From positions 1 to 43,691 of IMG/VR virus record IMGVR_UViG_2645727945_000025: a stretch of DNA of 43,691 nt. One strand, written 5' to 3'. Positions 1,369 through 43,691 of this stretch are shown in pieces. Below the pieces are notes generated by a model that was not told the DNA's origin, made no database searches, and saw only the letters and a program-made list of their open reading frames with translations. The translations under genes and the position numbers were made by a program. This DNA comes from a virus (taxonomy: Duplodnaviria; Heunggongvirae; Uroviricota; Caudoviricetes). The stretch's first letter is position 1. Each line of letters opens with the position of its first letter.

Positions 1369-1444
1369 GCCGATATAGCTCAGTTGGTAGAGCAGCGCAT
1401 TCGTAATGCGAAGGTCGTAGGTTCGACTCCTATTATCGGCACCA
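1369..1444 (+). tRNA. thrW: tRNA-Thr (anticodon CGU)
   Basis: 76-nt sequence GCCGATATAGCTCAGTTGGTAGAGCAGCGCATTCGTAATGCG...GGCACCA folds as a cloverleaf with CGT anticodon and encoded CCA; classic phage integration target. Confidence 0.9.
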
Positions 1445-1462
1445 TTTAAATCAATAAGTTAC
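1399..1462. repeat. attL core: 64-bp direct repeat (tRNA 3' half plus 18 bp), identical to 41138-41201
   Basis: Exact 64-bp identity between the two positions; flanking sequence diverges on both sides. Confidence 0.85.
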
Positions 1463-2619
1463 CTCACATTTAAGTAAATCACGTTCTCCTCTTGTGCCGT
1501 ATTTGTGCCATTGCGACTTATAATTGCATCGATTTTGCTCGCGTGCTCGGTGAGATGCCCGGCTGAAAGGTGGGCGTATCTTTGAACCATTTCGAGAGTT
1601 TCCCATCCTCCCATCTCTTTAAGTGCAAGAAGAGAGACTCCGGACTGAACCAGCCAGCTTGCCCAGGTGTGTCTCAGGTCATGGAATCGGAAGTTGCTAA
1701 TGCCTGCCCGCTTTAACGCTCCCTTCCATGCTTTGTTGCTATCGGTTCTCATCTTCCTTACCGCAGCTGTTTTTGTTCCGTCGCTTCGGTAGGCAGGTTT
1801 GGTGTGGACAAATACCCATCTCTTATGGAGCCCCTGCTGTTTTCTTAATATCTGGCATGCGGTTTCGTTAAGAGGAACTCCGATCGCATTGCCAGCTTTT
1901 GTTTCATCAGGGTGCATCCATGCCATTTTCTTATCCAGATCGACCTGTGACCACTCAAGGTCTGTAACGTTGGAACGGCGAAGGCCTGTCGTGATTGCAA
2001 ACATGACTACAGGGAAGAAATGAGGAGCAATTTCTGCAAACAGGCGCTTCGATTCCTCCTCTGTAAGCCATCTAATGCGTCCATTCTTAACGCGTGGTGT
2101 TGATATTTTGGGCGCCCTGTCAAGCCATCCCCATTCAACAGCCATATTGAGAATAGCGCGAAGTATTGCCAGATGCCGCGTCTTCGTTCCTTTGCTTGCC
2201 AGCTTTGGTTTATACTCCGGCACTGGCTTGCCAAGCCGCAAACACCTGTCCCGGCTCATTTCCCAGTTCAGGCGATGGCGGCGGTTTTCCATCCCGTCTA
2301 CCGCCTCCATTATTTTTTCTGTTGTTATGTCTGAGAGAATGGTTTCTCTGAAGTGCAACATCCAGAACGATATAATGCTCTTGTCATCATCAATGGACTT
2401 CTTATCCGATTTCTCACGAAGCCACCGTATGCAGGCTTCCTTGAATAGCTTTTTCGGTGATTCCCCGAGATTTTTTACTCTCCACGCTTCTGCTTTCAGA
2501 CGATCGTGAAGTTCTTGCGCTTGCCTTTTGTCCGATGTTTCAAGAGAGCGTCTAACTCTTGATCCATCTGGCGCGACGAAATCACAGTGCCACGTGCCAC
2601 CGCGTAGTTTGATTGACAT
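1459..2619 (-). CDS. int: Tyrosine integrase (P22/lambda family), 386 aa
   Basis: C-terminal catalytic motifs (HDLRHT...W, ...MVQRYAHL); stop codon lies inside the att core next to the tRNA. Confidence 0.95.
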   Translation of the reverse strand: MSIKLRGGTWHCDFVAPDGSRVRRSLETSDKRQAQELHDRLKAEAWRVKNLGESPKKLFKEACIRWLREKSDKKSIDDDKSIISFWMLHFRETILSDITTEKIMEAVDGMENRRHRLNWEMSRDRCLRLGKPVPEYKPKLASKGTKTRHLAILRAILNMAVEWGWLDRAPKISTPRVKNGRIRWLTEEESKRLFAEIAPHFFPVVMFAITTGLRRSNVTDLEWSQVDLDKKMAWMHPDETKAGNAIGVPLNETACQILRKQQGLHKRWVFVHTKPAYRSDGTKTAAVRKMRTDSNKAWKGALKRAGISNFRFHDLRHTWASWLVQSGVSLLALKEMGGWETLEMVQRYAHLSAGHLTEHASKIDAIISRNGTNTAQEENVIYLNVR

Positions 2620-2843
2620 GCTTTAACCTCCTGCACATCAACCGCATTCACCGCGCTATTGTGTCTTACAGACTTAAGCGCCGCAATGCAGTCTGACTTG
2701 CAAATGCGATATGGGCTTTTAGGTTTATCTGGATTTATCTTTGCGGCCTGAAGTCGTCCACTTCGTATCCACTGCGTGATAGTGCCTTTGTCTACCTTCA
2801 GATACGATGCTGCCTCTTCACGAGTGAAGATTTCTTCTTCCAC
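2496..2843 (-). CDS. xis: Excisionase-like HTH protein (probable GTG start)
   Basis: Overlaps int 5' end as in lambdoid phages; homologous in sequence to the xis of prophage 2 (42238-42588). Confidence 0.65.
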   Translation of the reverse strand: MEEEIFTREEAASYLKVDKGTITQWIRSGRLQAAKINPDKPKSPYRICKSDCIAALKSVRHNSAVNAVDVQEVKACQSNYAVARGTVISSRQMDQELDALLKHRTKGKRKNFTIV

Positions 2844-2930
2844 TTGGAATCTCCATTTATTGAGTTGGTATTATTGCGGTAGGTCTGGATATCTTGAGAA
2901 ATGAACAGGCCTCATCGAGTGTGAGGCGGG

Positions 2931-3275
2931 TTAGTCCTTGCGTAGCTCGCTGATTCTTCTGTAAGTCTCTGGTGCTTTGTTCCCGTACGTCTTCATTTCA
3001 GACTTCAACAGAGCAACGAGTGAATCCCATTCGTTGAGGATGCCTTTGAATGCCGGAACGCGCTTTGCAACCTTGTCGAATGAATCTCTGATTTCTGGAA
3101 TCTGCTCAACAAGTGCAACGCATCGCCGGAAATCTGCTGCGTCATGTGGAGCGCCGAAGTGATGACCATAGATATTCTTTTTCAGTCCACATGCGATTGA
3201 GGCAAGAGTTGCGCTACTGATGCCGACATCGCCAGTCGATTGCCATTTCAAAACCTTAATAGCCAAATCTGACAT
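2931..3275 (-). CDS. Hypothetical protein (114 aa from internal ATG with GGAG RBS)
   Basis: Track ORF 2931-3302; likely start at Met10; preceded on its own strand by an intrinsic terminator. Confidence 0.5.
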   Translation of the reverse strand: MSDLAIKVLKWQSTGDVGISSATLASIACGLKKNIYGHHFGAPHDAADFRRCVALVEQIPEIRDSFDKVAKRVPAFKGILNEWDSLVALLKSEMKTYGNKAPETYRRISELRKD

Positions 3276-3285
3276 TTCTTGTCTC

Positions 3286-3309
3286 CAATAAAAAACCGCC
3301 ATCAGGCGG
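3286..3309 (-). terminator. Intrinsic terminator within early-left operon (approx.)
   Basis: Minus-strand reading gives CCGCC-TGAT-GGCGG hairpin followed by TTTTTTATT. Confidence 0.5.
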
Positions 3310-3352
3310 ATTGGTGTTCTTTCAGTTCTTCAATTCGAATATTGGTTACGTC

Positions 3353-3652
3353 TTATTCGATACGCACTCCTGGTATTTCGCCTTTTGATATTGCTAAGTC
3401 ATAAATTTGCGCGGCACTATACCCATCTCGCATCCATGAATCTAAGGCGCGAACAGCCTCGCTACGCTTTTTATCTTCTCTCTCATTTTTGATATCAACG
3501 AGGACATCAACGCAATTAAGGCATATGTGGATTTTGTCCTTACATTCGATCATGGCGGCTTTACCATGATTTCCGCCACACAGTGAGCATAAATCTTCAG
3601 GGTCTGGCTGGTATTTCTGTAACGTTAGAGGGTTGAATGTTGAACAGGCCAT
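3353..3652 (-). CDS. Hypothetical Cys-rich (CxxC...CxxC) small protein
   Basis: Track ORF; start at Met5 with GGAGA RBS; two CxxC pairs suggest a zinc ribbon. Confidence 0.5.
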   Translation of the reverse strand: MACSTFNPLTLQKYQPDPEDLCSLCGGNHGKAAMIECKDKIHICLNCVDVLVDIKNEREDKKRSEAVRALDSWMRDGYSAAQIYDLAISKGEIPGVRIE

Positions 3653-3723
3653 AATCATCTCCATAAAACAAAACTCGCCGTAGCGAGTTCAGATAAAAGA
3701 AATCCCCGCGAGTGCGAGGATTG

Positions 3724-4008
3724 TTATTCAGTGCTGATATTTACCTTTATAGCGAACACCTTTACCGGTTTATCGCCGAAGTGCGGATGTGTGATTGTCT
3801 TGATTTCATATCCGTCATACGGGACGTCAATTCTGCGACTGAAGTCTTCGCGCTTCGGATATCCCTTTGTGATAATCAGGCGGTCATACTTACGGTTAAC
3901 GAGGCGCTTATTCCAGTAGTCATTACACAGGCGATACTCTTCCGTTTTCTCCCCGCGAATCATGGCATCGAAGTATTCACCTTTAACGGCAAGTTGCAGG
4001 TTAGCCAT
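3724..4008 (-). CDS. Hypothetical protein, ASCH/PUA-like by motif
   Basis: Track ORF; start at Met8 with GGAGG RBS and TAATG stop-start overlap with upstream gene. Confidence 0.5.
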   Translation of the reverse strand: MANLQLAVKGEYFDAMIRGEKTEEYRLCNDYWNKRLVNRKYDRLIITKGYPKREDFSRRIDVPYDGYEIKTITHPHFGDKPVKVFAIKVNISTE

Positions 4009-4268
4009 TACCGCACCTCCAGTCTCCATACCGCCTGACCAATCCGGCTGGCATAGGTATCTTTGGATACTGCTCCGTCTTTAGCCAGCTCCATAAGAAT
4101 TTTGCGCAAATCTGCCGAACGCCATTCTTCATCAGGAAATTCCTTCTCCATTGCCAACCGCAGATTCCAGGTTGCCATCCTGAATGGATATTTCCCGCCG
4201 AGAGCTTTATCTTGCAGGGCAGCCCGGGAACGCATCACCTGCAAAACCTTCTCTTTTACATCCATCAT
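4008..4268 (-). CDS. Hypothetical early protein (86 aa)
   Basis: Track ORF, translationally coupled to neighbours. Confidence 0.5.
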   Translation of the reverse strand: MMDVKEKVLQVMRSRAALQDKALGGKYPFRMATWNLRLAMEKEFPDEEWRSADLRKILMELAKDGAVSKDTYASRIGQAVWRLEVR

Positions 4269-4834
4269 TTCGCCTCCTGCGGCGGTTCTGGTAGAGGCAT
4301 CCAGTGAGTTGCTTGCTCAATACCATTACCCGGCTTAATCGTTACATCTCCGCGCCGAAAGGTGATTCCGGTATAGCGTGCGGAGCATATTAGCGGTTCA
4401 ACCAGAGAGCTATCGAAATTCACCGAAATAAGCACGTTCTGATTCTTTTCCGGCATTCGCTCACTACAGCTTATCCAACCATCCGGAGTTCCCGGAGTTG
4501 GTCCATCGAATTTGGGCATGTCAGGACCTTTTCTGATAGCTTTAGCCAGCTCCAGCGGGTCATCGTAAAGCCAGTCGCCAGTTTGTGGGTGATTTGCTTC
4601 TGCAAGCTGCGCAGCCCATTCAAGACCATCTTTTTGACCTTGAAGATAATCAAGTGGCAACTCTTCATGATTACTTGCAGGTTCGGCACTATCAGCTTCG
4701 CGCCGCTTCTGTAGCTCTGCTGCCATTGCTCTCACGACTTCAACTGGTGCCCTTGCAGCAAACTCTATGTTGGTGATCAGCTCATTAAGATATTGCTCGC
4801 TGGGATACTGTTTTTTATCGGTTATAGTGGTCAT
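4265..4834 (-). CDS. Hypothetical early protein with DUF551-like C-terminus (W.PLPEPP)
   Basis: Track ORF 4265-4876; start at Met15 with AGGAG RBS. Confidence 0.5.
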   Translation of the reverse strand: MTTITDKKQYPSEQYLNELITNIEFAARAPVEVVRAMAAELQKRREADSAEPASNHEELPLDYLQGQKDGLEWAAQLAEANHPQTGDWLYDDPLELAKAIRKGPDMPKFDGPTPGTPDGWISCSERMPEKNQNVLISVNFDSSLVEPLICSARYTGITFRRGDVTIKPGNGIEQATHWMPLPEPPQEAK

Positions 4835-4835
4835 A

Positions 4836-5231
4836 TCACTCTCCTTTTCCCTGAAGCATAGCGGCACGGCAGGCATTCCACCCCTTCACATAACCGAACG
4901 CCATCAACTGATCACTCATGGCGGGCAGCATTGTGTGGGTCGTACTGATTTCTTCCGGCACTACCGGCGCTGGCGGGGTGATGCGTCCAAGCAACTTATT
5001 TACCTCTTTCGCCATCGCGTCATATTTATCTAAATGGCGATTAGCTTCTAAGCAGACTCGGCGCATCTGATCTGAGTTAACTCGTTTAACTGGATCTGCT
5101 TCCAGCGATGCCAGCGCAATCCGTGCCAGTTCTTCCGCTTCTTCTGCTGGCAGTACAACGTTGCTACCAGGTCCGTATGTTTCGCGCCACTGCTTGATTG
5201 TCAGCAGTCGCTCTTTGGTAATAGTGATCAT
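4836..5231 (-). CDS. Hypothetical early protein (131 aa)
   Basis: Track ORF in operon context. Confidence 0.5.
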   Translation of the reverse strand: MITITKERLLTIKQWRETYGPGSNVVLPAEEAEELARIALASLEADPVKRVNSDQMRRVCLEANRHLDKYDAMAKEVNKLLGRITPPAPVVPEEISTTHTMLPAMSDQLMAFGYVKGWNACRAAMLQGKGE

Positions 5232-5743
5232 GCCGCGTTTCCTTCTTTCTTATTAACAATTACACCGTCATATATTTCATTAAGGTGCCCTCTCAACTCC
5301 ATGCGCCTTAATGCAGATAACATGTAATCGCATTCAACCTGCTTATTTCCAGTAAATGGCTTATCGTCAGGATTACCCCAACAGCAATTACCCTTGGGCC
5401 ACCCATGTACTTTCCGTACTCTTCCGTTAACAACGTGAAGTAATCCCCAGCCAGGTGGTAAATCCTCAACTGAAATAATTCCCGGCTCACTAATAAAGAA
5501 TCGCCAGTCGCCCATTCCAAGAGACGGATTTTTACGAAAACGCTTTTTTCTATCTGCCAACAAGTCAGCACGAGAACATTTCGCCTCTATCAGGCATGAT
5601 GCTGAATTTCTGAATCCCATAGCATCTGGCTGTTCTCCGGTACTGGTTACAGCTATAAAGCGGTCATGAAAACAAACCTTGAACCCGTTGCGCTTAAGGA
5701 ACTTGTACGCAATCTGACAGAGTTCGCGGTGTGTTAACGCCAT
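5228..5743 (-). CDS. Hypothetical protein with PD-(D/E)xK-like motif (PD...EAK), 171 aa
   Basis: Track ORF 5228-5815; start at Met25 with AGGAG RBS; near-identical paralog at 42890-43405 in prophage 2. Confidence 0.55.
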   Translation of the reverse strand: MALTHRELCQIAYKFLKRNGFKVCFHDRFIAVTSTGEQPDAMGFRNSASCLIEAKCSRADLLADRKKRFRKNPSLGMGDWRFFISEPGIISVEDLPPGWGLLHVVNGRVRKVHGWPKGNCCWGNPDDKPFTGNKQVECDYMLSALRRMELRGHLNEIYDGVIVNKKEGNAA

Positions 5744-5744
5744 A

Positions 5745-5933
5745 TCACTCTCCTTTAGTGCGCAAGTGGTTTTTCCAGCGGTTTTGCGCCGCGCTGGGCT
5801 TTTTGCAAAAACCACAATCCATCATCCCGTAATGTTTCATTAACCCCATCCGTCGGTTGCTGAGTCTCACCCACTGCCAGACGCCAGGAGCGTTTCTACG
5901 AACTAACAGAATCTTTGCTTTACGGTTTTTCAT
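5745..5933 (-). CDS. Hypothetical small basic protein (62 aa)
   Basis: Track ORF with GGAGA RBS; segment absent from the homologous position in prophage 2. Confidence 0.35.
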   Translation of the reverse strand: MKNRKAKILLVRRNAPGVWQWVRLSNRRMGLMKHYGMMDCGFCKKPSAAQNRWKNHLRTKGE

Positions 5934-6105
5934 CGCTTTGCTCTCCTGCGTCTCTTTGCTGCTCGTCGTGCCGCTGCAATACCGGTATGGCGGCGCTTTG
6001 GTGCCGGGATGATGTTGTCAGCCATCAGGACATACGGCTTTGCAATTAGCGCAGAAGCCCAAAAACGAGTCGGGTACGGTAACAAGCCGATACATGCCAC
6101 ACGCA

Positions 6106-6789
6106 TTACTCACCTCCTTTGATGCGAATGCCTGCGGCGCGGATTGCAGCGATGACTTCAGAAACTTTGTATGCCATTACCGTTTGGTAATCATCGTGAA
6201 AATCTGTTCGATGAAGCATGCTGCTACGTTCCGGGAGCGATATTTCCCGAGCATCCAGTTCCTTAACGCGTTCCTCCAGTTCGTAGACCCTGCATTGTTC
6301 TCTATCATCAATCAGATATACCCCAAGACATTCGCTTTCTACCCAACCGCCAAAATCATGATCGTAACGCTCACATGAAAACTCACCGTCACCGTCCTTT
6401 GTTGGAATGGTGTAACTATCTAATGGGCCACCATATGTCGGCACATTTCCCAATGTTGGATGCTCAATCCACATGAAAAATGCACGTCCGGTTATTGGGC
6501 AAATATCTGGCCGCCATTGGTTACGAACAGCCTTGGTTTCGGATAATTCTTCAGCGTGTTGTTTTACTTCCTCAAGCTCAACACGCAGCTTCCCTACCGT
6601 TAGCGCAATATCCTCGTTCTCCTGATCGCGGCTTTTGATGTATTGCAGGTTTCTTTCCCGTTCATCCAGCATTGCCAGCACAATCGATGGTGTTACCAGC
6701 TCATGGAAAAGGTCCGCGTCAAATCCCCAGTCGTCATGCATTGCCTGCTCTGCCGCCTCACGCAGTGCCTGATGGTCAATTTTGCTCAC
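6106..6789 (-). CDS. Hypothetical early protein (227 aa)
   Basis: Track ORF; 3' and 5' parts homologous to the partial gene at the window end (43408-43691). Confidence 0.55.
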   Translation of the reverse strand: MSKIDHQALREAAEQAMHDDWGFDADLFHELVTPSIVLAMLDERERNLQYIKSRDQENEDIALTVGKLRVELEEVKQHAEELSETKAVRNQWRPDICPITGRAFFMWIEHPTLGNVPTYGGPLDSYTIPTKDGDGEFSCERYDHDFGGWVESECLGVYLIDDREQCRVYELEERVKELDAREISLPERSSMLHRTDFHDDYQTVMAYKVSEVIAAIRAAGIRIKGGE

Positions 6790-7045
6790 TGGCTGCCTCC
6801 GCTTCCCACGTTTTCAAACTTTCACCACAGAACGGGCAAAAGCACATTGCAACGCCACGACCGATATATTTCCCCGAGTGAATTTGAGCAATATCTATGC
6901 ATGACTCGCCGGTGTTTATGTTCACACGCTCCGGGATAAATATGCCTTTACTCTTGAATGTTGGATTTCCATATTCGAGAGATTTTGCCAACGCCGCGCA
7001 CGGTTCTATCTTGTTGCCATTAATTTGGCATTTTGACTCACTCAC
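6776..7045 (-). CDS. Hypothetical Cys-rich protein (89 aa)
   Basis: Track ORF, overlaps neighbours in operon fashion. Confidence 0.45.
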   Translation of the reverse strand: MSESKCQINGNKIEPCAALAKSLEYGNPTFKSKGIFIPERVNINTGESCIDIAQIHSGKYIGRGVAMCFCPFCGESLKTWEAEAASEQN

Positions 7046-7473
7046 TGGTTGCCTCCTTTGCGAAGCTCAGCGGCGAAGGCTACTGCGTGATCATGATGTT
7101 CAAGTGTGTATGCGCACTCAGCAAACATCTCCACGCCCTGTGCCCGTACATCAGCCAGGAAAGCATCGGTGGCTGGGGTGTCTGATTGCAGAGACTTTGC
7201 GCGATAGTCATTCCACCCTCTTGCATACATGGGATTAACTTGCACTCCATCTTTTACACAATATGCCTGCCCTCCACGGTTGATAACCTTGATTTCGTCC
7301 ATAGCGCCAGACTTCATCCCCGCATTCTCCGCTGCCAGCGCCGCGCACTTGGCCTCCGCTTCAGCAAATTTACGCACCAGATATTCAGCGTTTGTTTCGT
7401 TAACCTTTAAATCTCGTGGGATGCATTTACCTTTCAGAAATCCATCCATCTCAATTAGTGACATTTGTTTCAT
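7042..7473 (-). CDS. Hypothetical early protein (143 aa from Met7)
   Basis: Track ORF 7042-7491; ATGA overlap with the upstream small ORF. Confidence 0.5.
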
Positions 7474-7634
7474 TTCTTCCAACTCCGCCACATTGCATTC
7501 AGATATTTGTTTTGATTCACTGATGGAAAAGAATTTCTCTTAAGCAATTCCTCTCTCGATGGCATTGGCTTTACGCGTTGGCGAATAATCATTTCTGCCG
7601 GAAGAATGCCGGGATTGTATGAAAGTCCTCTCAT
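7470..7634 (-). CDS. Possible small ORF (54 aa), translationally coupled
   Basis: ATG overlaps stop of 7631-7921 gene (ATGA) and its stop overlaps the next start; below track threshold. Confidence 0.25.
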
Positions 7635-7921
7635 GATTTACTCTCCATGAACTGGTCAACAGCCATGCTAAGTGATACACCTAAAGTCTCGATATGCTGC
7701 TGAATATCCTGTAGCGTCTGCGCCTGAGATAACAGGATTTCACGGTTGCATAACTCTTTAACCAGATGCTCAAACTTGCTGTAATAACCGATACGACTTA
7801 GTGTTTCTTTCCCTGCATTCTCGCCTTCTTTGATAATTCCTCTTTCATTAAGAATCAGGTCGTGTTTGGTTCCGGTAATAACGTATTTTCCGAGGTCGAT
7901 GTTTAGCTTCATTGTTTTCAT
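7631..7921 (-). CDS. Hypothetical early protein (96 aa)
   Basis: Track ORF 7631-8074; likely start at Met52 with GAGGA RBS just after the upstream stop. Confidence 0.5.
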
Positions 7922-7931
7922 TGTTAATTCC

Positions 7932-8228
7932 TCAGTCATTACTGATAGCGCCATAGCGTGAGCGGTAATTACGCAGGCGCGGGTCGATATATTCAGGGAA
8001 GTGGGTATATGTTGCTTTGCGGAACGGTCGGATTGATGTCTGGTAAATTCGCTCGCGTTCTTCTTTCTCTGCAAGCCATATACAATGGCGAAATTCCTTT
8101 TCCTCTTTCGTTTCCTGCGGTAGAGACATTATTCGATCGTAGTTTTTTCTGAATTTATCCAGCACTTCCGATACGGAATTGCCGGAACAGCGGCGTGGGT
8201 CATCCGCACCATACAGAGGCGCTGGCAT
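7932..8228 (-). CDS. Hypothetical early protein (98 aa)
   Basis: Track ORF. Confidence 0.45.
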   Translation of the reverse strand: MPAPLYGADDPRRCSGNSVSEVLDKFRKNYDRIMSLPQETKEEKEFRHCIWLAEKEERERIYQTSIRPFRKATYTHFPEYIDPRLRNYRSRYGAISND

Positions 8229-8251
8229 AATGGAATCCTTATGTTGCTACT

Positions 8252-8635
8252 TTAGAAGGGAATTGAATCGTCGTATTCAGGATGATTTTGATGATTGCTA
8301 CTTTGCTGCTGTTGGCTGTTTCCTGAAGTTGCAAATCCAATCTTTGCATTCAGTAATTCAAGAGTGATTGATTGACCATTTTGCCCCTGATAAACATCAA
8401 CCCTGATGTTTTCTCCGGTAATTTCTACAATGCCACCTTCAACAAGAACACTACGGTAGTAATCCGCTTGCGCTCCCGGCTTGGCAAATACAACGGCGCT
8501 GTAGTTTGTCCATTCTTTCTTTTTTGTCTGGCGATCGTAATACTGAACGCCAGCACGGATGTTGAATCCGATATTTTCCCCGGCCTGAAACTCTCTTGCG
8601 GGCTTGTTTAGTCTTACAGTAATCGAATGTGCCAT
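8252..8635 (-). CDS. Putative single-strand DNA-binding protein (127 aa) with acidic C-terminal tail ...EYDDSIPF
   Basis: Track ORF 8252-8725; start at Met31 overlapping erf stop; C-terminal DDxIPF tail is an SSB hallmark. Confidence 0.5.
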   Translation of the reverse strand: MAHSITVRLNKPAREFQAGENIGFNIRAGVQYYDRQTKKKEWTNYSAVVFAKPGAQADYYRSVLVEGGIVEITGENIRVDVYQGQNGQSITLELLNAKIGFATSGNSQQQQSSNHQNHPEYDDSIPF

Positions 8636-9240
8636 TAAGCAGCCGCTCCTTCTAATTCGTCTCGTCTGATGTTGTAAACGTCCTGCGCTTTGTGCTGCTC
8701 CGGTGTGCCTTCGAGCATCTTCCACGCTTTGGCGAACGCCTGTTTAAGCTCTTCCACGGTGTTTTTCTGCAATGCTGCGTCAGTGAATGCTTTTAGAACC
8801 TGTTCAGGTGTAGGTGATGGTTTTGATTGCTTTGCTGCTGCGTTCTGCTGATGTTTATGCTCGTCTGTATCTGCATCTTTCGCATCATCAATGCCGAATA
8901 AACCATTGAGGCAATACTTGCGTGCATAAGAGCTTGTAGCTCCCGTAACTTGTGCAGAATCCATTCCTTTCTTGCTTTCTTCCTCTCGTGCAAGAGCGGT
9001 TGCCGTATGACTGTTTTCGCCATCGGTAATAGTTGCCGTGGCTTTCACGTAATACCGATCACCAATCAACACAACTTCATCGCTGATTGATAAAAACAGG
9101 CCATTCAGTAACGGCTTAACGCCTTCAAGAATGTCTTCGCAGCTTCTGTATTTATATTTACCGAATGAGTTGTACTGATTCTTTGGCGCGTTCAGATTCT
9201 CCTGAATGGCTGCCAGCCTTGCATAAAATTCTTTGCTCAT
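8635..9240 (-). CDS. erf: ERF-family single-strand annealing recombinase
   Basis: Track ORF 8635-9270 (start at Met11); sequence recalled as close to P22 Erf (MSKEFYARLA...NQYNSFGKYKYRSCEDILEG). Confidence 0.7.
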   Translation of the reverse strand: MSKEFYARLAAIQENLNAPKNQYNSFGKYKYRSCEDILEGVKPLLNGLFLSISDEVVLIGDRYYVKATATITDGENSHTATALAREEESKKGMDSAQVTGATSSYARKYCLNGLFGIDDAKDADTDEHKHQQNAAAKQSKPSPTPEQVLKAFTDAALQKNTVEELKQAFAKAWKMLEGTPEQHKAQDVYNIRRDELEGAAA

Positions 9241-9250
9241 ATGATTGCTC

Positions 9251-9421
9251 TCAGAATGGACATGGCCCAAGGAAATAACGCTGATTTAATACTTCAGTCT
9301 TTGCCGCATTTAAAAATACGCGAACACCTTCACGATCTCCCTTCTGGCGATACATTAACGCCTGCTGCGTGTACATGCGTCTCTGTAACTTACTCTCCTT
9401 CACTGTGGTTGCAAGTGACAT
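9251..9421 (-). CDS. Small ORF (56 aa) in the kil/arf position
   Basis: ATG with strong AAGGAGATATTC RBS; below track size threshold. Confidence 0.35.
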   Translation of the reverse strand: MSLATTVKESKLQRRMYTQQALMYRQKGDREGVRVFLNAAKTEVLNQRYFLGPCPF

Positions 9422-9633
9422 GAATATCTCCTTCGTTACCGATTAATTCTTTCATCTGACGAATGAATTCTTCGTCTGACCAGTTATCTGTAAAGCTCAT
9501 TTCCTGCGATACCACGGAAGGTTGATAGCTGATTTCATCGCTTTATTTGCTTCAAGCCACATTTTGGAATCACCAATAAATCGGGCTATTACTGCTTTGT
9601 TTTGTGCAGCACGAAGCATCTGGTGATTGATGG

Positions 9634-9768
9634 CTATTTCATTGCGCATAACGCCTCCAGTTGTTTCTTTGCTGCTCTGATTAATTGTTTAACTCGGCGT
9701 GATAATTCAGATTCGTGCGGGTAGAAAGCGGACATGACGCCGCTACCCGCGAACTGAAAGTGCATCAT
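9634..9768 (-). CDS. cIII-like small protein (44 aa)
   Basis: Track ORF 9634-9873; AAGGAG RBS before internal Met36; position and sequence style match lambdoid cIII. Confidence 0.5.
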   Translation of the reverse strand: MMHFQFAGSGVMSAFYPHESELSRRVKQLIRAAKKQLEALCAMK

Positions 9769-9830
9769 GGGTAACTCCTTCTGTTTGATTGCATAACGAA
9801 AACGCCTCAATTGAAGCGTTATTGGTATGC

Positions 9831-9858
9831 ATATAAAAAGGCCCTCACACTGGAGGGC
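9831..9858 (-). terminator. Intrinsic terminator upstream of the cIII-like gene (approx.)
   Basis: Minus strand: GCCCTC-CAGTGT-GAGGGC hairpin followed by CTTTTTATAT. Confidence 0.4.
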
Positions 9859-9994
9859 AAAGAAGATTTCCAATAATCAGAACAAGTCGGCTCCTGTTTA
9901 GTTACGAGCGACATTGCTCCGTGTATTCACTCGTTGGAATGAATACACAGTGCAGTGTTTATTCTGTTGTTTATGCCAAAAATAAAGGCCACCA

Positions 9995-10808: not shown

Positions 10809-10810
10809 AA

Positions 10811-36243: not shown

Positions 36244-36588
36244 TTAGCGGTTGATGGTTGCTTTTTTCGGGTCATACCATCTCGGCCATTCTTTCAGGAA
36301 TGGGAATGAGTCAGGTGCGTGGTTCTTTTTGTACGATTTAAGCAGCCTTAACCGCTCAACCGCACACTCATAAACCTCTTGTTGCCCTGTAGTCATCTCG
36401 GTCCATGAAAGGTGATCCATTGATAAGACAACGTTTTCAGCTTCTTTTATGAGGGCGTTTTTATTTCTCACCGCAGCAGCATGGCTGACAGAGCAATCCT
36501 GCCATATTCTTAAAAGCCAAATAGCCAAGCAGATGAAAAAAATGGTAGATAGCGATATATACACACCAACCTCCTTAGTTTTGAGCAT
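36244..36588 (-). CDS. Single-pass membrane protein (114 aa), moron in the sieA slot
   Basis: Track ORF; N-terminal hydrophobic helix VGVYISLSTIFFICLAIWLL; AT-rich; opposite strand to the virion operon. Confidence 0.5.
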   Translation of the reverse strand: MLKTKEVGVYISLSTIFFICLAIWLLRIWQDCSVSHAAAVRNKNALIKEAENVVLSMDHLSWTEMTTGQQEVYECAVERLRLLKSYKKNHAPDSFPFLKEWPRWYDPKKATINR

Positions 36589-36617
36589 GACGAAATTAAC
36601 CAGCCATCAGGCTGGTA

Positions 36618-36800
36618 TTAGTCACATTCTATTTCTTTTGTCGAGGTCCATACATAAGGGTCTGAGCAAACAACCTCACCATTTATCATGACGTCATAGC
36701 CCATTAGATATGAGTTACCACCAACAATCTGAGCGGCTATGACGCTAATGCTGGCGGCGCAGGCTGCACCAAAAACGAAACCAATTAATATATTTTTCAT
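36618..36800 (-). CDS. Small secreted/periplasmic miniprotein (60 aa) with signal-peptide-like N-terminus
   Basis: Track ORF; [17 protein letters not shown] then a Cys-containing mature part. Confidence 0.4.
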
Positions 36801-36831
36801 TTTAATTCCAAATAGTTATAGGATGAAAGTT

Positions 36832-37017
36832 ATGACCATAGAAGAACGTCTGAACAACATTGAGTTGAACCAAACCCTGCTTGACCAGCGACTTTCAGAT
36901 CTTGAGCTTAAAGATCTAGATGCGCAAATATCAGAAGCAGAAGCCAAGCTCTCCAGCCTAAACCACCGCAAGAAGCAAATCCGCAACAGAATTACTCAGG
37001 GACGCGGAAGCTGTTGA
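36832..37017 (+). CDS. Possible coiled-coil miniprotein (61 aa), convergent with the mnt-operon ORF
   Basis: Internal ATG of track ORF 36739-37017 with AGGA RBS; low-complexity heptad-like sequence. Confidence 0.3.
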   Translation: MTIEERLNNIELNQTLLDQRLSDLELKDLDAQISEAEAKLSSLNHRKKQIRNRITQGRGSC

Positions 37018-37201
37018 GGTGGGATGCTAGGTCTCTATCGTTAAAATCAAGGCTGCTAATCATTTCATTGTAGATGGCGTTTTTATCTTCCATTGGCAGT
37101 CTTGAGTAAACCAGACACAGAGCATATTTCAGGGAGTTTAGCTCTTTCTCTAGCTCTTCCTTGCTTGACGTTTTTGACTTAATAAACTGTTTTTTATTCA
37201 T
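36992..37201 (-). CDS. Hypothetical 69-aa protein translationally coupled to mnt
   Basis: Start adjacent to the mnt stop with AAGGA RBS inside the mnt 3' end. Confidence 0.45.
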   Translation of the reverse strand: MNKKQFIKSKTSSKEELEKELNSLKYALCLVYSRLPMEDKNAIYNEMISSLDFNDRDLASHLNSFRVPE

Positions 37202-37434
37202 TTTGCATCCTTACCATACATGGTTTTCAGTGTTTCAAGTAGCGCATCCCTGAATTTGTCAGCCTCTTTCTGAGCAAATTCATTGCTATTAAGCGATCTA
37301 CCACAAACAGCATCTTCGATAATCTGTATTATTTCAGCATTCATGGAACGCTTGTTATGTTGCGCCCTGGCTTTAACCTTTGCCTTTAACTCTTTGGAAA
37401 TCCTGATATTTATTTGCGGCTCTTCGCGTGACAT
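37198..37434 (-). CDS. mnt: Mnt-like ribbon-helix-helix maintenance repressor
   Basis: N-terminal RHH sequence resembling P22 Mnt (..RISKELKAKVKARAQHNKRSMNAEIIQII.DA); divergent from arc. Confidence 0.75.
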   Translation of the reverse strand: MSREEPQINIRISKELKAKVKARAQHNKRSMNAEIIQIIEDAVCGRSLNSNEFAQKEADKFRDALLETLKTMYGKDAK

Positions 37435-37487
37435 ACCACCTCCATAGCATTTTGGTGATATTACTATTGCATCACTGCGATCACAAT

Positions 37488-37504
37488 GGTATAACGGTTA
37501 TACC
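37488..37504. promoter_or_regulatory. 17-bp perfect palindrome GGTATAACGGTTATACC in the mnt-arc intergenic region (candidate operator)
   Basis: Read directly; located between the divergent RHH repressor genes. Confidence 0.45.
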
Positions 37505-37522
37505 AAATTGATTGGAGGTAAT

Positions 37523-37696
37523 ATGATAGTCAAGTCAGACGCACCAAAGTACCCTTTGCGCATCCCATTAGAGGTTAAGTTAGCAATCGAGAAGTCAGCG
37601 AAAGAAAATGGTCGCTCAATAAATACCGAGATGGTAATGCGGTTAGTGGATAGTTTAAGGCGGGATAGTTCTAAAGGTAATCTAGCAAAAAGTTGA
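37523..37696 (+). CDS. arc: Arc-like ribbon-helix-helix repressor (57 aa)
   Basis: GGAGG RBS; RHH motif ...PLRIPLEVKLAIEKSAKENGRSINTEMVMRL; directly upstream of ant. Confidence 0.7.
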   Translation: MIVKSDAPKYPLRIPLEVKLAIEKSAKENGRSINTEMVMRLVDSLRRDSSKGNLAKS

Positions 37697-37726
37697 AGCC
37701 CCAACTGCTGTAACAGTCAGGGCTTC
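37695..37726 (-). terminator. sar-like antisense terminator in the arc-ant intergenic region (approx.)
   Basis: GAAGCCC/GGGCTTC stem; only on the minus strand is it followed by a T-run (AACTTTTTGC). Confidence 0.4.
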
Positions 37727-37758
37727 GGTATCAACAAAACTTACGAGGTATTATTGAT

Positions 37759-38649
37759 ATGTCAAGCTTAGCAAAGTCAACTGTAAATTGCACTAATAGC
37801 ATCATCATTTCTGACGTCAAGATTCATATGGATTCAGAGGGTCGTTACTCGCTTAATGACCTTCATGTAGCGTCTGGAAAGGAGGAAAAACATCAGCCAG
37901 CTTTCTTCATGCGTAGAAATGAAACTATTGAATTGATTAATGAAATTTTTAATTCTGCGGATATGCAGAATAAGAATCCCGTCCTTTCTAAGAAAGGTAG
38001 ATATGGTGGAACCTACGTGTGCAAGGAGCTTGTTTACTCCTACGCCATGTGGATTAGCGCAGCCTTTGCGCTGAAGGTTATCCGTGCATATGACGCAATG
38101 GTTACTACCACACAAGAGAGGAAGGCTATTGGCGGTAAAACTTCAGTAGCTGAACGCACACCGCTACGCGATGCAGTAAACATGTTGGTAGGAAAGAAAG
38201 GACTTCGCTATGACGATGCATACAATATGGTTCATCAGCGTTTTGGTATTGACAGCATTGATGAACTTTCAATTGAACAAATCCCGCTGGCCGTAGAGTA
38301 CATCCACAGGGTAGTGCTTGAAGGTGAATTCATCGGCAAACAAGAGAAGAAAACCAACGAGCTTTCTGCAAAAGAAGCAAACAGCCTTGTATGGCTATGG
38401 GATTATGCCAACCGCTCACAGGCATTATTCCGCGAACTGTATCCGGCGCTGAAACAAATTCAATCGAACTATTCCGGCAGATGTCATGACTGCGGTTATG
38501 AGTTCTCCCGTATTATCGATATAGCGAGAGACGTTTTAATCAATCACTCACGAGATGTTGATATCAATGAGCCAGACGGACCAACGAATCATTCCGCATG
38601 GATGAGACTTAAGAATAAAGAATTACCTCCTTCAGTACATAACTACTGA
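37759..38649 (+). CDS. ant: Antirepressor Ant (296 aa)
   Basis: Size and position after arc; KilA-N-like N-terminus. Confidence 0.85.
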
Positions 38650-38749: not shown

Positions 38750-40885
38750 ATGACAGACATTACAGCCAATGTGATCGTATCGATGCCTTCGCAACTCTTC
38801 ACTATGGCTCGTTCTTTTAAAGCCGTAGCCAATGGAAAAATTTATATCGGTAAAATTGACACTGACCCGGTAAATCCTGAAAACCAGATTCAGGTTTATG
38901 TGGAGAACGAAGACGGCTCTCACGTTCCTGTATCGCAGCCAATCATCATTAACGCTGCCGGATATCCTGTATATAACGGACAGATTGCCAAATTCGTAAC
39001 TGTGCAAGGCCATTCTATGGCTGTTTATGATGCATATGGGGCGCAGCAGTTCTATTTTCCTAATGTGCTGAAGTATGACCCTGATCAACTCAGGTCTGAA
39101 TTATCAGCTCAGGGTGGAGATAAGATTGTTGGTAGTTCGTATGGCGGAACCGTCTATACAGACTACAGTCCATCAGAATTCATTAAGTTTGCAGAATTCA
39201 CCGTCCCAACAAGTCTTTCAAACAATAGACAAGCCGTTAAATATATAGACGGATTTTGGTATGTATGGAATGGAACATTTCCATACAATACTGGAACGTC
39301 AAATCCTGGTAATAATGACACATGGAAATGCGTTGGACTTCTAAATGGTTTTTCGGTTAATGACGCTCAGAACTTTGGCTTCACAGGGGGTATGGACGAT
39401 GCACTTCCAGCGCTAAATGCGATGATTAGAAGCCCATTTTTTGAAATGTTTTTCCCTATTGGAAGTGAAATTAATATTTCGTCTGACTGGAATCTCCGTT
39501 CAAATTTATATATAAACTTTCACGGTTCAACAATCAACTGGATGGGTGCTGCTTTCTCAAGTTCTGATGTTGTGAATGGTAGCGAGATGGCTATTTTAAA
39601 TACGCCAAATTTTTCAGGTGGAACTACAGGGGCACTCGTAAACCTTCATCTGTCAAACTTAAATATTAAAGCAAATGATTACGCAATAGGCATAAGTGCA
39701 AGGAATATTACAAATTTCTCTATAGAGAATGTTTATGTAGAGAAAGCGCAACGTCAAGGAATTAATGTATCTAATTGCCAGAATGGATGTATTAATCAAA
39801 TAACTCTGAAAGATTGCTCTCCTTTATCTGATAAAGGATTTACTAGTTCACAGCTAGAGAGTTGGGGCGATGGATTGATTGTATGGTATGGAAGCACTAA
39901 CGTATCCATTGATAACATTAGAGTTGAATCAGGAAATAATTCACGAGGAGGTCGCTGCGGTATCTGTATCGATGGTTATGCTCCATCCGGAAAGCCAGAT
40001 TCACGCAATATTTCTGTAAATAACGCTTATGTTTACGGTTATGACAGGCCTATACATACCGAACTATGCGGTATTGTTACCGTAACTAACAGTGTTTTCG
40101 AATACAACTCAGGCTCTGACACGCATCACTTTTTGCAATGTGGTGTCGTCGTGTGGAATGTCCTTGAAACCACTACTTTTATCAACTGCACGTTTCGCAC
40201 AGATATGCGGTTTATGAAAAACTCAGGCGCTAAGGCGAAATTCATAAAATGTAATGTGTACAAAACATCAAGCACTGAGCCTATGTTTATAACAGGTACA
40301 GAGCAAACAGGTATAGTTAATTTTGATGACTGCTTACTTTCTCATGCCGGTGGTGAATGGGGGGCTTGGAACTGTTCATTAAGTTTTAATGGTTGCACGA
40401 TATCATCTGATTCTGCTGGATCTGTTATTAATTTTGGTAGCGAATCCATACCAAAAAATATCACTATTGTTAATTCACATCTGTTAAACACATCAATATC
40501 AGCACTGTTCGCACCTGGATTTACTGAAATTCATCTTTCTAATTCAACAATAAATGGAGATGTTAATTGCGGACCTTCTGCCAGACTTCGTGTAAATTCA
40601 TGCGATATATATGGAGTTGTTACATGCAATAGTGTAATGAGATACAACGGACAGAAACCAAATAAATTAATTTATTTGCAAAATGCAGACCAGCAATACA
40701 ATGGCATGTGGCTAGGAACGCGCCCACCACTAGGTGCTAGACCAGATGGATCTGGAGATTGGTTGAGGGGTGATATAGTTTTTAATCTCGACGCCATAGA
40801 GTCAACACCATTCCAATGGTATTGCGTAACCCCAGGATCGCCTGGAAGATGGGCTGTATCTGGAACTCTTGGCGCAGCTTCTTAA
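38750..40885 (+). CDS. Tailspike (P22 gp9-family head-binding N-terminus plus divergent receptor-binding domain), 711 aa
   Basis: N-terminal ~115 aa recalled as the conserved P22/HK620/Sf6 head-binding domain; remainder AT-rich with repetitive beta-strand-like segments. Confidence 0.9.
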
Positions 40886-41137
40886 ATTTAAATGAATAAC
40901 TATATTAGTTAATGGTCTTATCTCTGTCACAACCTCATGACACACAAAGCTTTGCACTGGATTGCAAGGCTTTGTGCTCTTCTATGCTGGGTGGCTACAT
41001 GTTTGAAGATCGTTGTGCCGTATTTGTGACATACACATGACAACATCATGCATCAACTTTCTGTTTGTGCCATCAACTATTGCTTGGTGAATGCGGTTAA
41101 TGCTTGCTAAAACAGATAGTTATGATTGGTGCTACAG

Positions 41138-41201
41138 ATTCGTAATGCGAAGGTCGTAGGTTCGACTCCTATTATCGGCACCATTTAAATCAATAAGTTA
41201 C
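41138..41201. repeat. attR of prophage 1 and attL of prophage 2: second 64-bp core copy with tRNA 3' fragment
   Basis: Identical to 1399-1462; the 5' tRNA half is not reconstituted here (no GCCGAT acceptor strand upstream). Confidence 0.85.
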
Positions 41202-42361
41202 ACATCATTAGTACCTTCCTTATTTTTTGACTGGGACAAATTTGGGACCGATGGGTTCAGAATCGAGTCTATTTGCCGTGCGTGTTCGGTAAGGTGATTA
41301 GGCGCGAGGTGAGCATATCGACGAACCATTTCGATAGACTCCCAGCCACCCATTTCCTGTAACACTGACAACGGGACTCCGGCTTGAACCAGCCAACTTG
41401 CCCAGGTGTGTCTCAAGTCGTGAAATCTGAAATCATCAATACCAGCTCGTCTCAGCGCCGCTTTCCAGGCTGTGTTTGCGTCATACCGCATCTTCCTTAC
41501 TGTTGGCGCTTTCGTTCCGTCTGGTTTGGTACAGCTTTCCTTGTACACAAATACCCAACGGTGATGATTCCCGATTTGTTTTTTCAAAACGCGACATGCA
41601 GTATCATTCAGCGCAACGCCGATTGCGCGGTTTGATTTACTCTCTTCCGGGTTTATCCATGCCACCCGGCGCTGCATATCTATTTGTTGCCATTCAAGGT
41701 TGATGATGTTCGAGCGTCTTAAACCTGTTGCCAGTGCAAATTCAACAACAGACTTTAATGGCTCCGGACATTCATCAATCAGCCTTTGTGCTTCATGGGG
41801 CTCCAGCCAGCGGATCCGTTTATTCTTTGGTTGAGGCACTTTAATAATTGGTGCCTTATCCAGCATTTTCCATTCACGCTCTGCGGCTCTTAGTAGGGCC
41901 TTTATAAATGAAAGATGCGTAGCCTTCGTTGCAACGGACGCTGGTTTTGGCGTGTATTCTGGAACAGGTTTCCCTTTTTTTCTGCATGCTTCTGCCCTGA
42001 GTTTCCAGTTTTCCTCATGACGCCGGTTCGTCATTTTCTGCATTGCTGAATAAATTTTTGATTCAGTAATGTCTCTTAGTTGCATTCCTGCGAAATGTTG
42101 AAGCCAGAATCCGATCCGGCTTTTGTCATCGTCCAGTGATTTTTTATGTGCTTTCTCTTCAAGCCACCTGACACACGCTTCCTCGAACGTTATATCAGGT
42201 ATTTCACCAAGTTTGCTGACCCGCCATGCTTCAGCCTTTAGCTTGTCATGGAGTTCTGTCGCCTGCCTTTTGTCCTTTGTTCCAAGAGACTGTTTAAATC
42301 TTTTACCGTTCGGCAATGTGAAACTGGCGTACCATATTTCACCTCTGCGGAAGAGTGACAT
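41198..42361 (-). CDS. int: Tyrosine integrase of prophage 2 (P22 Int-like, 387 aa)
   Basis: Recalled close similarity to P22 Int ([33 protein letters not shown]...); stop inside the att core. Confidence 0.95.
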
Positions 42362-42588
42362 TTTCTTTCCTCTGTTATGCCATCACCCGCGCTCACCTGG
42401 ACAGTATGCAGCGGAGACTGAAGAGCCGCAATGCAGGCTTGTCGTGTTGTGAGGTAAGGAGATTTATTCTTAGTGGGATCTTTGCGTGTTGCCTGAAGAC
42501 GCCCTGTGCGTATCCAGTTAATGGCAGTCGGTCTGGATATCTTGAGAAAATGACAGGCCTCATCGAGTGTGAGGCTGTATGGCTCCAT
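42238..42588 (-). CDS. xis: Excisionase of prophage 2 (116 aa)
   Basis: Internal Met29 of track ORF 42238-42672 with AGAGGTG RBS; overlaps int as in lambdoid phages. Confidence 0.65.
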
Positions 42589-42893
42589 TATTTCACCTCT
42601 TGCTGTGACATTGTTGAAAAATGGATACCAGCTCGTTGCTGCCAGATGATCCAACCGAGAGTCATATCCCATGCCATGTATTCGTTATCGCCGTTTTTTG
42701 CTCTCCGACGATCTACTAAGTCACCAAAACGCTTTTCCATGAATAATTCATAAGCTTCGCGTTCATCTGGTTCTACTTCCAGAGATAGGAGTGCGATTTC
42801 ATAAGCCCGGCGCTCAATATTGTCTCGAACGTCCAAGCTACCAATTCGCTCTCTGATTTCTTTAATTAGTTCTTTGTCGGTTAAAGTGGTCAT
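42588..42893 (-). CDS. Hypothetical early protein of prophage 2 (101 aa)
   Basis: Track ORF. Confidence 0.45.
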   Translation of the reverse strand: MTTLTDKELIKEIRERIGSLDVRDNIERRAYEIALLSLEVEPDEREAYELFMEKRFGDLVDRRRAKNGDNEYMAWDMTLGWIIWQQRAGIHFSTMSQQEVK

Positions 42894-43405
42894 GCTGCGT
42901 TTCCTTCTTTCTTATTAACAATTACACCGTCATATATTTCATTAAGGTGCCCTCTCAACTCCATGCGCCTTAATGCAGATAACATGTAATCGCATTCAAC
43001 CTGCTTATTCCCAGTAAATGGCTTATCGTCAGGATTACCCCAACAGCAATTACCCCTGGGCCATCCATGTACTTTCCGTACTCTTCCGTTAACAACGTGA
43101 AGTAATCCCCAGCCGGGAGGTAAATCCTCAACTGAAATAATTTCCGGCTCACTAATAAAGAATCGCCAGTCGCCCATGCCAAGTGAGGGATTTTTACGGA
43201 AACGCTTTTTTCTATCTGCCAACAAGTCAGCACGAGAACACTTCGCCTCTATCAGGCATGATGCTGAATTTCTGAATCCCATAGCATCTGGCTGTTCTCC
43301 GGTACTGGTTACAGCAACAAAGCGGTCATGAAAGCAAACCTTGAACCCGTTGCGCTTAAGGAACTTGTACGCAATCTGACAGAGTTCGTGGTGTGTTAAC
43401 GCCAT
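42890..43405 (-). CDS. Paralog of 5228-5743 (PD-(D/E)xK-like motif protein), 171 aa
   Basis: Near-identical protein and DNA to the prophage-1 copy; start at Met12 of track ORF. Confidence 0.55.
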   Translation of the reverse strand: MALTHHELCQIAYKFLKRNGFKVCFHDRFVAVTSTGEQPDAMGFRNSASCLIEAKCSRADLLADRKKRFRKNPSLGMGDWRFFISEPEIISVEDLPPGWGLLHVVNGRVRKVHGWPRGNCCWGNPDDKPFTGNKQVECDYMLSALRRMELRGHLNEIYDGVIVNKKEGNAA

Positions 43406-43407
43406 AT

Positions 43408-43691
43408 CACTCTCCTTTGATGCGAATGCCTGTTGCAATGCTGTTTATGATGCTGTCAGTGCATGGGGTAGAAAGCTGGGCATCTCCAGCAATTTTCATG
43501 ACCTCAACATCTGCATATCGAATACCGAGGTGTATCAGACCGGCTATGCCTGACTTAAGCCGAGCATTTTCCATAAATAGAACTTTTGCCCGCTGTTTTT
43601 CTGCTTCAAGCTCAACGCGCAGCTTCCCTACCGTTAGCGCAATATCCTCGTTCTCCTGATCGCGGCTTTTGATGTATTGCAGGTTTCTTTC
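43408..43691 (-). CDS. Partial CDS (3' end only; 5' end beyond window), homolog of 6106-6789
   Basis: Open frame to the window edge; C-terminus ...IRIKGE and last ~90 nt match 6570-6660. Confidence 0.35.

Follow-up and report, generated by a model that had tools for sequence, protein, structure and literature searches.

We have analysed a 43,691-nucleotide (nt) stretch of DNA (IMG/VR record IMGVR_UViG_2645727945_000025, hereafter the window). It belongs to a draft Escherichia coli contig of 75,064 base pairs, JHRO01000030.1 (assembly GCA_001265515.1), and stops 1 nt away from the end of that contig. Very probably, the window holds a heterotypic tandem array of prophages at the E. coli tRNA gene thrW, in which a P22-like prophage with an SfX-type integrase (element 1) is followed by what is most probably an SfV-like element (element 2). 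The arrangement is real but ordinary; it is an instance of a known phenomenon, and has been produced experimentally before. The observations that carry this reading are an exactly repeated attachment (att) core, a hybrid junction between two different sets of att arms, and the recurrence of this same junction in finished genomes.

Att cores and the hybrid junction

The att core is a 64-nt string, ATTCGTAATGCGAAGGTCGTAGGTTCGACTCCTATTATCGGCACCATTTAAATCAATAAGTTAC, that is present at 1399-1462 and again at 41138-41201 with 100% identity, and the identity ends sharply at both edges. Its left part consists of the 3' 46 nt of thrW, and these first 46 nt are the thrW att core published for SfI, SfII, SfV, SfX and P22 (PMC3636060). 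We observed that each copy is followed by a minus-strand integrase gene, with its stop codon in the final bases of that copy, and that a gene for an HTH_17 excisionase comes next. A previous examination of the window, which we call the sequence-only reading, had reported that the core occurs twice and that each copy heads an int/xis pair, and we find this to be correct. The direct copies bound element 1 (1399-41201; 39,739 base pairs (bp) from core to core), and the tRNA is restored at the proximal copy. The integrases of the 2 elements, Int1 and Int2, are 56% identical in protein sequence (213/380) and about 70% identical in DNA sequence, in agreement with the earlier description of them as clearly diverged, and both keep the motifs of tyrosine recombinases (R...HxxR...Y, RYAHL) and match Pfam Phage_integrase (9e-35 and 3e-48). 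A homotypic tandem, in which one phage would be present twice, was rejected, since the integrases differ to this extent and the arms differ as well.

At the middle junction, 2 kinds of arm meet in one hybrid attP, the P arm being of the SfX/mEpX2/HK542 type and the P' arm of the SfV type. Tandem integration predicts a site of this kind. Specifically, the 199 bp to the left of core 2, together with the core itself, have counterparts of about 95% identity in the attP P arms of HK542, ECP1, HK75, mEp213, mEp043, mEpX2, HK446 and SfX. For SfII, SfV, SfIV and SfI, similarity sets in exactly at 41138 and extends to the right only. Sequential integration of 2 different phages at one core is expected to leave an internal site of the form P(upstream)-O-P'(downstream), and it is such a site that the window contains. 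The proposal that 41138 is the start of a second integrative phage element, placed in tandem behind the first one at thrW, is thereby borne out.

The arms also contain candidate binding sites for the integrases. A 20-nt motif, TTGTGCCGTATTTGTG(C/A)CAT, was found in the window only at 1492-1511, which is in the P'1 arm and 30 nt to the right of core 1, and at 41013-41032, which is in the P1 arm and about 105 nt to the left of core 2; 0 occurrences are expected by chance. We regard these as candidate arm-type sites of the SfX/CP4-6-type Int1. A shorter related motif, TTTGTGCCAT, is located at 41064-41073, and TGGGAC repeats are present in the P'2 arm. A P2 arm of the SfIV type, which would be expected at the distal end of element 2, reads ...GGTGGGACGTGTGAGCG...TTCTTATA. 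As each element keeps its own P' and P arms, each Int/Xis pair could presumably excise its own element precisely and alone, leaving the other undisturbed.

We suggest the following route to such an array. Int1 and Int2 would both act on one core of 46-64 bp, which overlaps thrW at its 3' end, so that any core left by a resident prophage could be used by a phage that arrives later. If the attP (P-O-P') of one phage were to integrate into an attL or attR belonging to the other, the outcome would be the series B-O-P'1 ... P1-O-P'2 ... (P2-O-B'), the first 2 sites of which match the window sequence. The thrW gene is, by this account, a landing pad shared by at least 2 diverged integrase lineages, and arrays build up there because residents leave fresh core targets behind. 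For annotation, it follows that prophage-calling programs should split the region at 41138-41201.

The same junction in complete genomes

We used 0.66-kilobase (kb) probes (662 bp) to count junctions in 5,426 complete E. coli genomes, with a required coverage of at least 80%. The junction of the window, P1-O-int2, was present in 31 of these genomes, at 97-98.6% identity over the 662 bp, and the reverse order, P2-O-int1, in 33 records (34 genomes), some of which have a mere remnant distally. Homotypic junctions were found in about 3 genomes for P2-O-int2 and, at high identity, in 2 chromosomes plus 2 small circular records for P1-O-int1. By these counts, thrW arrays occur in about 1% of complete E. 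coli genomes, a sum that is slightly overstated in that 81EVA, ES9 and G4/9 are counted in more than one class. No complete genome covered 80% or more of window positions 40000-43691.

In 3 genomes with the same junction, strain 1506 (NZ_CP059288.1), VTB97584v (NZ_CP178707.1) and 2023CK-01482 (NZ_CP141749.1), the layout is like that of the window, namely proA-thrW-int1-type prophage-junction-int2-xis-yfdT. These genomes continue after yfdT with yfdS/yfdR, whereas the window continues with a module made up of a gene for a 171-amino acid (aa) protein and an Ea22-like gene. The proximal phages across the 31 arrays are different mosaics and not one clone. That of strain 1506 is, like element 1, a P22-like podovirus with a tailspike, but it has RecT where element 1 has Erf, and a different terminase; that of VTB97584v ends in tail-fibre assembly genes, and that of 2023CK-01482 is 47.9 kb in length and has baseplate genes. 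As for the distal elements, VTB97584v has a third core 39 kb downstream of the junction and a distal prophage with frameshifted genes, and the distal SfV-like element of strain 1506 stops after its lysis genes at the insertion sequence IS5, the third core being absent. A more complex case is 81EVA (NZ_CP138397.1, 1387500-1437000), a three-element thrW array in which both junction types lie 39.6 kb apart and in which a type-1 prophage is followed by a type-2 prophage and then by a 483-bp fragment of a type-1 int, which an IS3 interrupts.

Excision from such an array has been captured in 2023CK-01482. A circle of 47,948 bp, deposited for this strain as "plasmid unnamed4" (NZ_CP141750.1), is 100% identical to the proximal prophage and is joined into a ring through the 64-bp core; in the chromosome (NZ_CP141749.1, 3851500-3901400), the distance between the cores is exactly 47,948 bp. 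The equality of these sizes shows that the circle arose by precise solo excision from a thrW array. The record is thus an excised prophage circle that has been mis-labelled as a plasmid.

These counts bear on the possibility that the tandem in the window is an assembly artefact, that is, that the assembly was mis-threaded through the 64-bp repeat and that one element resides at thrW while the other resides elsewhere or was present as a free circle or replicating genome. In favour of an artefact, the source contig is a draft one, the end of which falls within repeated sequence: the last 60 nt of the window (43632-43691) are an exact copy of 6599-6658 in the Ea22-like gene of element 1, from which we conclude that the assembly broke in that repeat. 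Also, a second public assembly of the element 1 phage, the Logan assembly of SRR21136873 (100% identical to element 1), breaks 30 nt into the core, and free circles of thrW phages have been co-assembled with their lysogens in complete genomes. Yet, ordinary reads are longer than the 64-bp repeat, and the contig passes unbroken through both copies. Moreover, a free phage circle gives P1-O-P'1 and cannot give P1-O-P'2, and the hybrid junction is found in 31 finished, largely long-read genomes, such that mis-threading would have to recreate exactly this natural join. On the latter 2 grounds, we consider an artefact to be highly improbable.

Comparison with known arrays and order of arrival

Infection of a Shigella flexneri SfX lysogen with SfI has been shown to give a tandem array at thrW, in which SfI had integrated immediately upstream of SfX, at the SfX attL, as established by junction polymerase chain reaction and sequencing (Sun et al. 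2011, BMC Microbiol 11:269; PMC3306764). As in the window, this SfI-SfX lysogen (serotype 1d) has a podovirus and a phage of myovirus lineage head-to-tail between proA-thrW and the downstream flank, with the same 46-nt core, the same integrase types (SfX-type and SfI/SfV-type), and an att site between the genomes. SfX is a podovirus with a type-1 int and SfI is a myovirus with a type-2 int, and the window thus mirrors the published experimental array. The 2 arrays differ in order, since SfI with its type-2 int is proximal and SfX distal in the lysogen, whereas the element with the SfX-type int is proximal and that with the SfV-type int distal in the window; they also differ in host, which is S. 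flexneri in the one case and E. coli in the other. Classical lambda tandem polylysogens are likewise direct arrays at one att site that arise by Int-mediated integration into a prophage att site. However, the lambda arrays are homotypic, have full-length homology and are unstable, whereas the array described here is heterotypic, has about 0.65 kb of scattered homology, and combines 2 Int/arm systems on one core.

By analogy with the SfI-SfX lysogen, the thrW-proximal P22-like phage probably arrived second, by integration into the attL of the resident element. The distal elements were the more decayed ones in the 3 analogues in which decay was visible, which is consistent with this order.

Identity of the distal element

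Only 2.5 kb of element 2 can be seen, because the window stops at the end of the draft contig. The segment from the core through int, xis and orf28 (41138-42893; 1,756 bp) is 98.6% identical to SfIV, 98.2% to SfV and 98.0% to SfII, as compared with 80.7% to P22, ST64T and L. In SfV, SfII, SfIV and SfI, these 4 components, which are 98% like those of element 2, have the same placing relative to the core, and the similarity ends at 42893. Identities of at least 97% to the int2 module were observed only for SfIV, VIT_AJPSC, SfV, SfII, phi458 and SfI, and SfV, SfII and SfI are documented myoviruses (PMC3636060). The exact Int2 protein was found in 28,578 blocks of a public collection, and we read the surroundings of int2 in 13 instances, comprising ten places with the exact protein plus TH9F11, VTB97584v and strain 1506. 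All 13 have an SfV-type early region (YfdP/Q/R, Phage_CP76, HTH_36 replication protein, PerC, Dam, RusA, KilA-N, DUF968). Wherever structural genes were visible, the terminase was of the P27 type, the head of the HK97 type and the contractile tail of the Mu type, and P22-type structural genes were never seen. An array like that of the window was seen in none of the places read for exact matches to Int2 or to the 171-aa protein. These comparisons make it most probable that element 2 is a lambdoid prophage like SfV, whether complete or decayed.

The sequence-only reading had taken both elements to be P22-like, and on this point we differ from it. Int2 does belong to the P22 Int lineage, its int-xis being 81% identical in nt sequence to that of P22; lambdoid modules reassort freely, element 2 has ea-region modules in common with element 1, and podoviruses such as SfX use thrW too (PMC3636060). 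It could therefore be proposed that element 2 is a second Lederbergvirus-type phage that carries an SfV-type int module, and that both residents are podovirus prophages. Against this, identities of 97% or more to the int2 module are confined to the 6 phages named above, every one of the int2 surroundings that we read was SfV-like, and the ea modules are common to every kind of lambdoid prophage. We conclude that the designation of 2 P22-like prophages is probably wrong, and that a podovirus body for element 2 is very unlikely. More generally, a prophage should not be called P22-like on the strength of a P22-lineage integrase.

A different question is whether element 2 is more than a decayed remnant, in which case an int-xis module and some early genes would form a cryptic island beside one live P22-like prophage. 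The distal elements of the other arrays offer precedents, since the one in strain 1506 is cut short at IS5 without a third core, the most distal one in 81EVA is the int fragment with IS3, and the distal prophage of VTB97584v has frameshifts; remnants such as CP4-6 and GI-thrW are widespread at thrW. On the other hand, int2, xis2, orf28 and the 171-aa gene are all intact open reading frames (ORFs) in the window, Int2 is residue-for-residue the common, functional-looking allele, and the elements with an int2 module in VTB97584v and TH9F11 are near-complete. We rate the remnant reading as less likely than not. Phage genes do continue beyond int/xis, in the form of yfdT/orf28, the 171-aa ea-region gene and the Ea22-like gene, contrary to what would be seen had the sequence-only reading mistaken an isolated integration module for a prophage.

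With regards to immunity, the CI repressor of element 1 is no more than 36-39% identical to 3 repressor types of int2-bearing elements, and mostly over the peptidase domain only. Similarly, the 2 co-resident repressors in the strain 1506 array share only the C-terminal peptidase domain (41% over 124 aa). Given these low identities, heteroimmunity of the 2 residents is the expected state.

Several points weigh against our reading of the array as a whole. The third core, the body and the immunity region of element 2 are all beyond the contig end, and linkage across the 64-bp exact repeat rests on a draft assembly. After orf28, element 2 departs from SfIV/SfV and carries the 171-aa/Ea22 module, and is thus a mosaic, the morphotype of which is read from proxies. 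The order of arrival is drawn from one experiment and from the greater distal decay in 3 analogues, and no excision or recombination product was observed for the source strain. The present assembly, with a draft contig that breaks off in a repeat, is no basis for a judgement on element 2. Were gtr genes present in this element, the array would also matter for the O-antigen serotype and for the question of which phage was able to adsorb first.

Segments shared by the 2 elements

The sequence-only reading had noted near-identical segments in the 2 elements, and we observed that these are slightly larger than had been claimed. The segment at 5217-5762 matches 42879-43424 over 546 bp at 96.2% identity, with 21 mismatches, no gaps and a longest exact run of 113 bp, and that at 6560-6657 matches 43594-43691 over 98 bp at 95.9%, with a longest exact run of 74 bp, the second match being cut by the window end. 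There is a third similarity, between 2873-2927 and 42521-42575 (55 bp at 89%). None of these stretches, nor the core repeat, is attributable to chance. The exact 171-aa protein encoded in the first segment is present in 9,926 collection blocks, and the prophages concerned have many different integrases; its surroundings included at least 3 other integrase types, other chromosomal sites, Stx-like and other lambdoid prophages, and one plasmid-like contig. Judged by this distribution, the shared segments are common lambdoid "ea" mosaic modules, and they indicate no special link between the 2 elements. Scans against Pfam and PADLOC gave no functional assignment for the 171-aa protein, for yfdT, or for several small ORFs. 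Recent exchange between the co-resident prophages was considered and rejected, as the shared copies differ at 21 of 546 positions. Exchange within the cell is also disfavoured by the finding that 41138-43691 is 98.4% identical, in 2 pieces, to the unrelated TH9F11, which exceeds the 96.2% between the shared copies.

The exact runs in the 2 larger segments are long enough for homologous recombination, and the earlier suggestion that these internal repeats are recombination substrates holds to that extent. A crossover in the 546-bp direct repeats, mediated by RecA or Erf, would delete 37,662 bp and leave a hybrid prophage, in which the body of element 2 would be driven by the SfX-type int-xis. 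The reciprocal 37.7-kb circle would have the whole P22-like body together with the SfV-type int-xis and the hybrid attP P1-O-P'2. Conceivably, then, the array is an active workshop in which thrW phages swap integration modules via the 546-bp repeats, and if so, it would offer a concrete route by which such phages exchange integrases. Among the sequenced phages of the collection, we found no record with the hybrid attP (P1 arm plus int2), as coverage of the probe was below 80% throughout. We think the workshop idea unlikely.

The P22-like prophage

Features of the window are listed in Table 1. The expected ORFs of element 1 are all full length, as judged from ORF calls and Pfam matches, and it is a complete, apparently intact P22-like podovirus prophage with an SfX/CP4-6-type int-xis module.

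Table 1. Coordinates of features in the window, with the evidence for each
Feature	Positions	Strand	Evidence
proA, 3' part (glutamate-5-semialdehyde dehydrogenase); bacterial left flank	1-1254	+	~98% to E. coli proA-thrW regions (RefSeq annotation: proA)
thrW, intact tRNA-Thr(CGT), directly downstream of proA	1369-1444	+	ARAGORN; Rfam tRNA, 71.8 bits
Att core copy 1: attL of element 1, B-O-P'1	1399-1462		Exact 64-nt repeat
int1, SfX/CP4-6-type tyrosine integrase, 386 aa	1459-2619	-	Pfam Phage_integrase
Candidate Int1 arm-type site in P'1 arm, TTGTGCCGTATTTGTGCCAT	1492-1511	+	
xis1, excisionase, 115 aa	2496-2843	-	phrog_2907, full length, 1e-52; Pfam HTH_17
Early-left operon: ea genes, Ea22-like, SSB, Erf, N-like antiterminator	2931-11155	-	PHROG matches; Ead_Ea22
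Shared segment 1, copy A, with 171-aa ea-region gene at 5228-5743	5217-5762	-	phrog_9263/631
Shared segment 2, copy A, within Ea22-like gene 6106-6789	6560-6657	-	Pfam Ead_Ea22
Immunity region of element 1	11675-13465		phrog_4 repressor plus CII-like; HTH_3 plus Peptidase_S24
Lambda-CI-like repressor	12061-12777	-	
cII-like gene	13100-13465	+	
Replication (O-like, DnaC-like loader), nin region, Q antiterminator, lysis genes	14098-21076	+	Profile matches, ORF sizes
P22-type virion module: gp3, gp2, gp1 portal, gp8 scaffold, gp5 coat, gp4, gp10, gp26 needle (with knob), gp14, gp7, gp20, gp16	22270-36235	+	
immI-like region: two Arc-family genes, sar antisense RNA, Ant	36244-38649		Pfam Arc x2, KilA-N plus P22_AR_C
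sar antisense RNA	37691-37757	-	Rfam, 67.4 bits against gathering score of 43
Ant antirepressor	37759-38649		KilA-N plus P22_AR_C
Tailspike, 711 aa, last gene of element 1	38750-40885	+	Pfam Head_binding, 7e-67 (P22 head-binding domain)
P arm of element 1, SfX/HK542/mEpX2/mEp043/HK75 type	40939-41137		~95% to their attP P arms
Att core copy 2: hybrid P1-O-P'2, attR of element 1 plus attL of element 2, with 46-nt tRNA fragment	41138-41201		
int2, SfV/SfII/SfIV-type (P22-family) integrase, 387 aa, intact	41198-42361	-	Pfam Phage_integrase
xis2, excisionase, start codon uncertain, 116-144 aa	42238-42672	-	HTH_17; annotated excisionase in SfIV, SfV
yfdT / SfV orf28 homologue, 101 aa	42588-42893	-	
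Shared segment 1, copy B, with 171-aa gene at 42890-43405	42879-43424	-	
Ea22-like gene cut by contig end, holding shared segment 2, copy B	43407-43691	-	Pfam Ead_Ea22

The int1 and xis1 genes are 98.2% and 96.3% identical in nt sequence to the SfX int and xis that flank IS2 in U82084. This integrase type is also present in the siphoviruses mEpX2, mEp043 and HK542, the records of which label the site "type CP4-6". The virion module gives Pfam matches to GP3_package, Terminase_6N/C, P22_portal, Phage-scaffold, P22_CoatProtein, P22_Tail-4, Phage_stabilise, Phage_tail_NK, DUF2824, P22_gp7, Inj_translocase and Phage_P22_gp16, in the canonical order. The structural half of element 1 is 95-97% identical in nt sequence to IME10, Louie, HZ41 and APC_JM3.2, and 81% identical to P22. 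At the megablast level, the coverage of either half of element 1 by any one sequenced phage does not exceed about 52%; as no single phage record spans more than about half, we regard element 1 as a new mosaic of known modules.

Element 1 resembles the IME10, HZ41, Louie and HK620 group and P22 in its virion gene order, in an immI region with sar RNA, in a tailspike with the head-binding domain, and in the thrW core. The immI region is located between gene 16 and the tailspike gene, as in P22-like phages. In contrast to P22, the int/xis of element 1 are of the SfX/mEpX2 type (Int1 being 56% identical in aa sequence to the P22-lineage Int2), the repressor is lambda-CI-like, and there is no gtrABC. 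The exact tailspike protein was found in 2 public contigs only, which are the source and the Logan assembly. We found no mention of the accession in the literature. The interval from the tailspike stop codon to the core (40886-41137; 252 bp) is without O-antigen modification genes (gtrABC or oac), whereas P22, SfX and the Sf phages have such genes by the att site.

Several other features of element 1 deserve mention. An ORF of 129 aa at 11675-12064 (minus strand; phrog_6534) overlaps the stop codon of the CI gene by 4 nt, in the position of lambda rexAB, and in view of this overlap it is presumably co-transcribed with CI and expressed from the prophage; we obtained no Pfam or PADLOC match for it. 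Between cII and the O replication gene there is a gene for a 214-aa protein (13500-14144, plus strand) with a T5orf172/MUG113 (GIY-YIG-related) domain; the protein is similar (6e-29) to PDC-S57, a candidate defence protein in PADLOC, over the N-terminal half of the latter. Possibly, this is a moron or defence gene in an unusual position. Three 24-nt iterons at 14505-14576, within the O-like gene, mark the replication origin (ori). In the nin region, an ORF at 16559-17146 (plus strand) matches PADLOC models for orphan DNA methyltransferases (1e-19); enzymes of this kind are typical anti-restriction or epigenetic cargo of phages. Finally, a perfect hexanucleotide microsatellite, (CAGAGC) x 12.7, is located at 28811-28886, inside a small ORF (28618-28956, plus strand) that comes after the coat gene and before gp4. 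The repeat is translated into (Glu-Pro)13, which precedes a lysine-rich tail, and it looks like a recent in-frame expansion, since the analogous ORF of the P22-like prophage in strain 1506 is only 62 aa in length.

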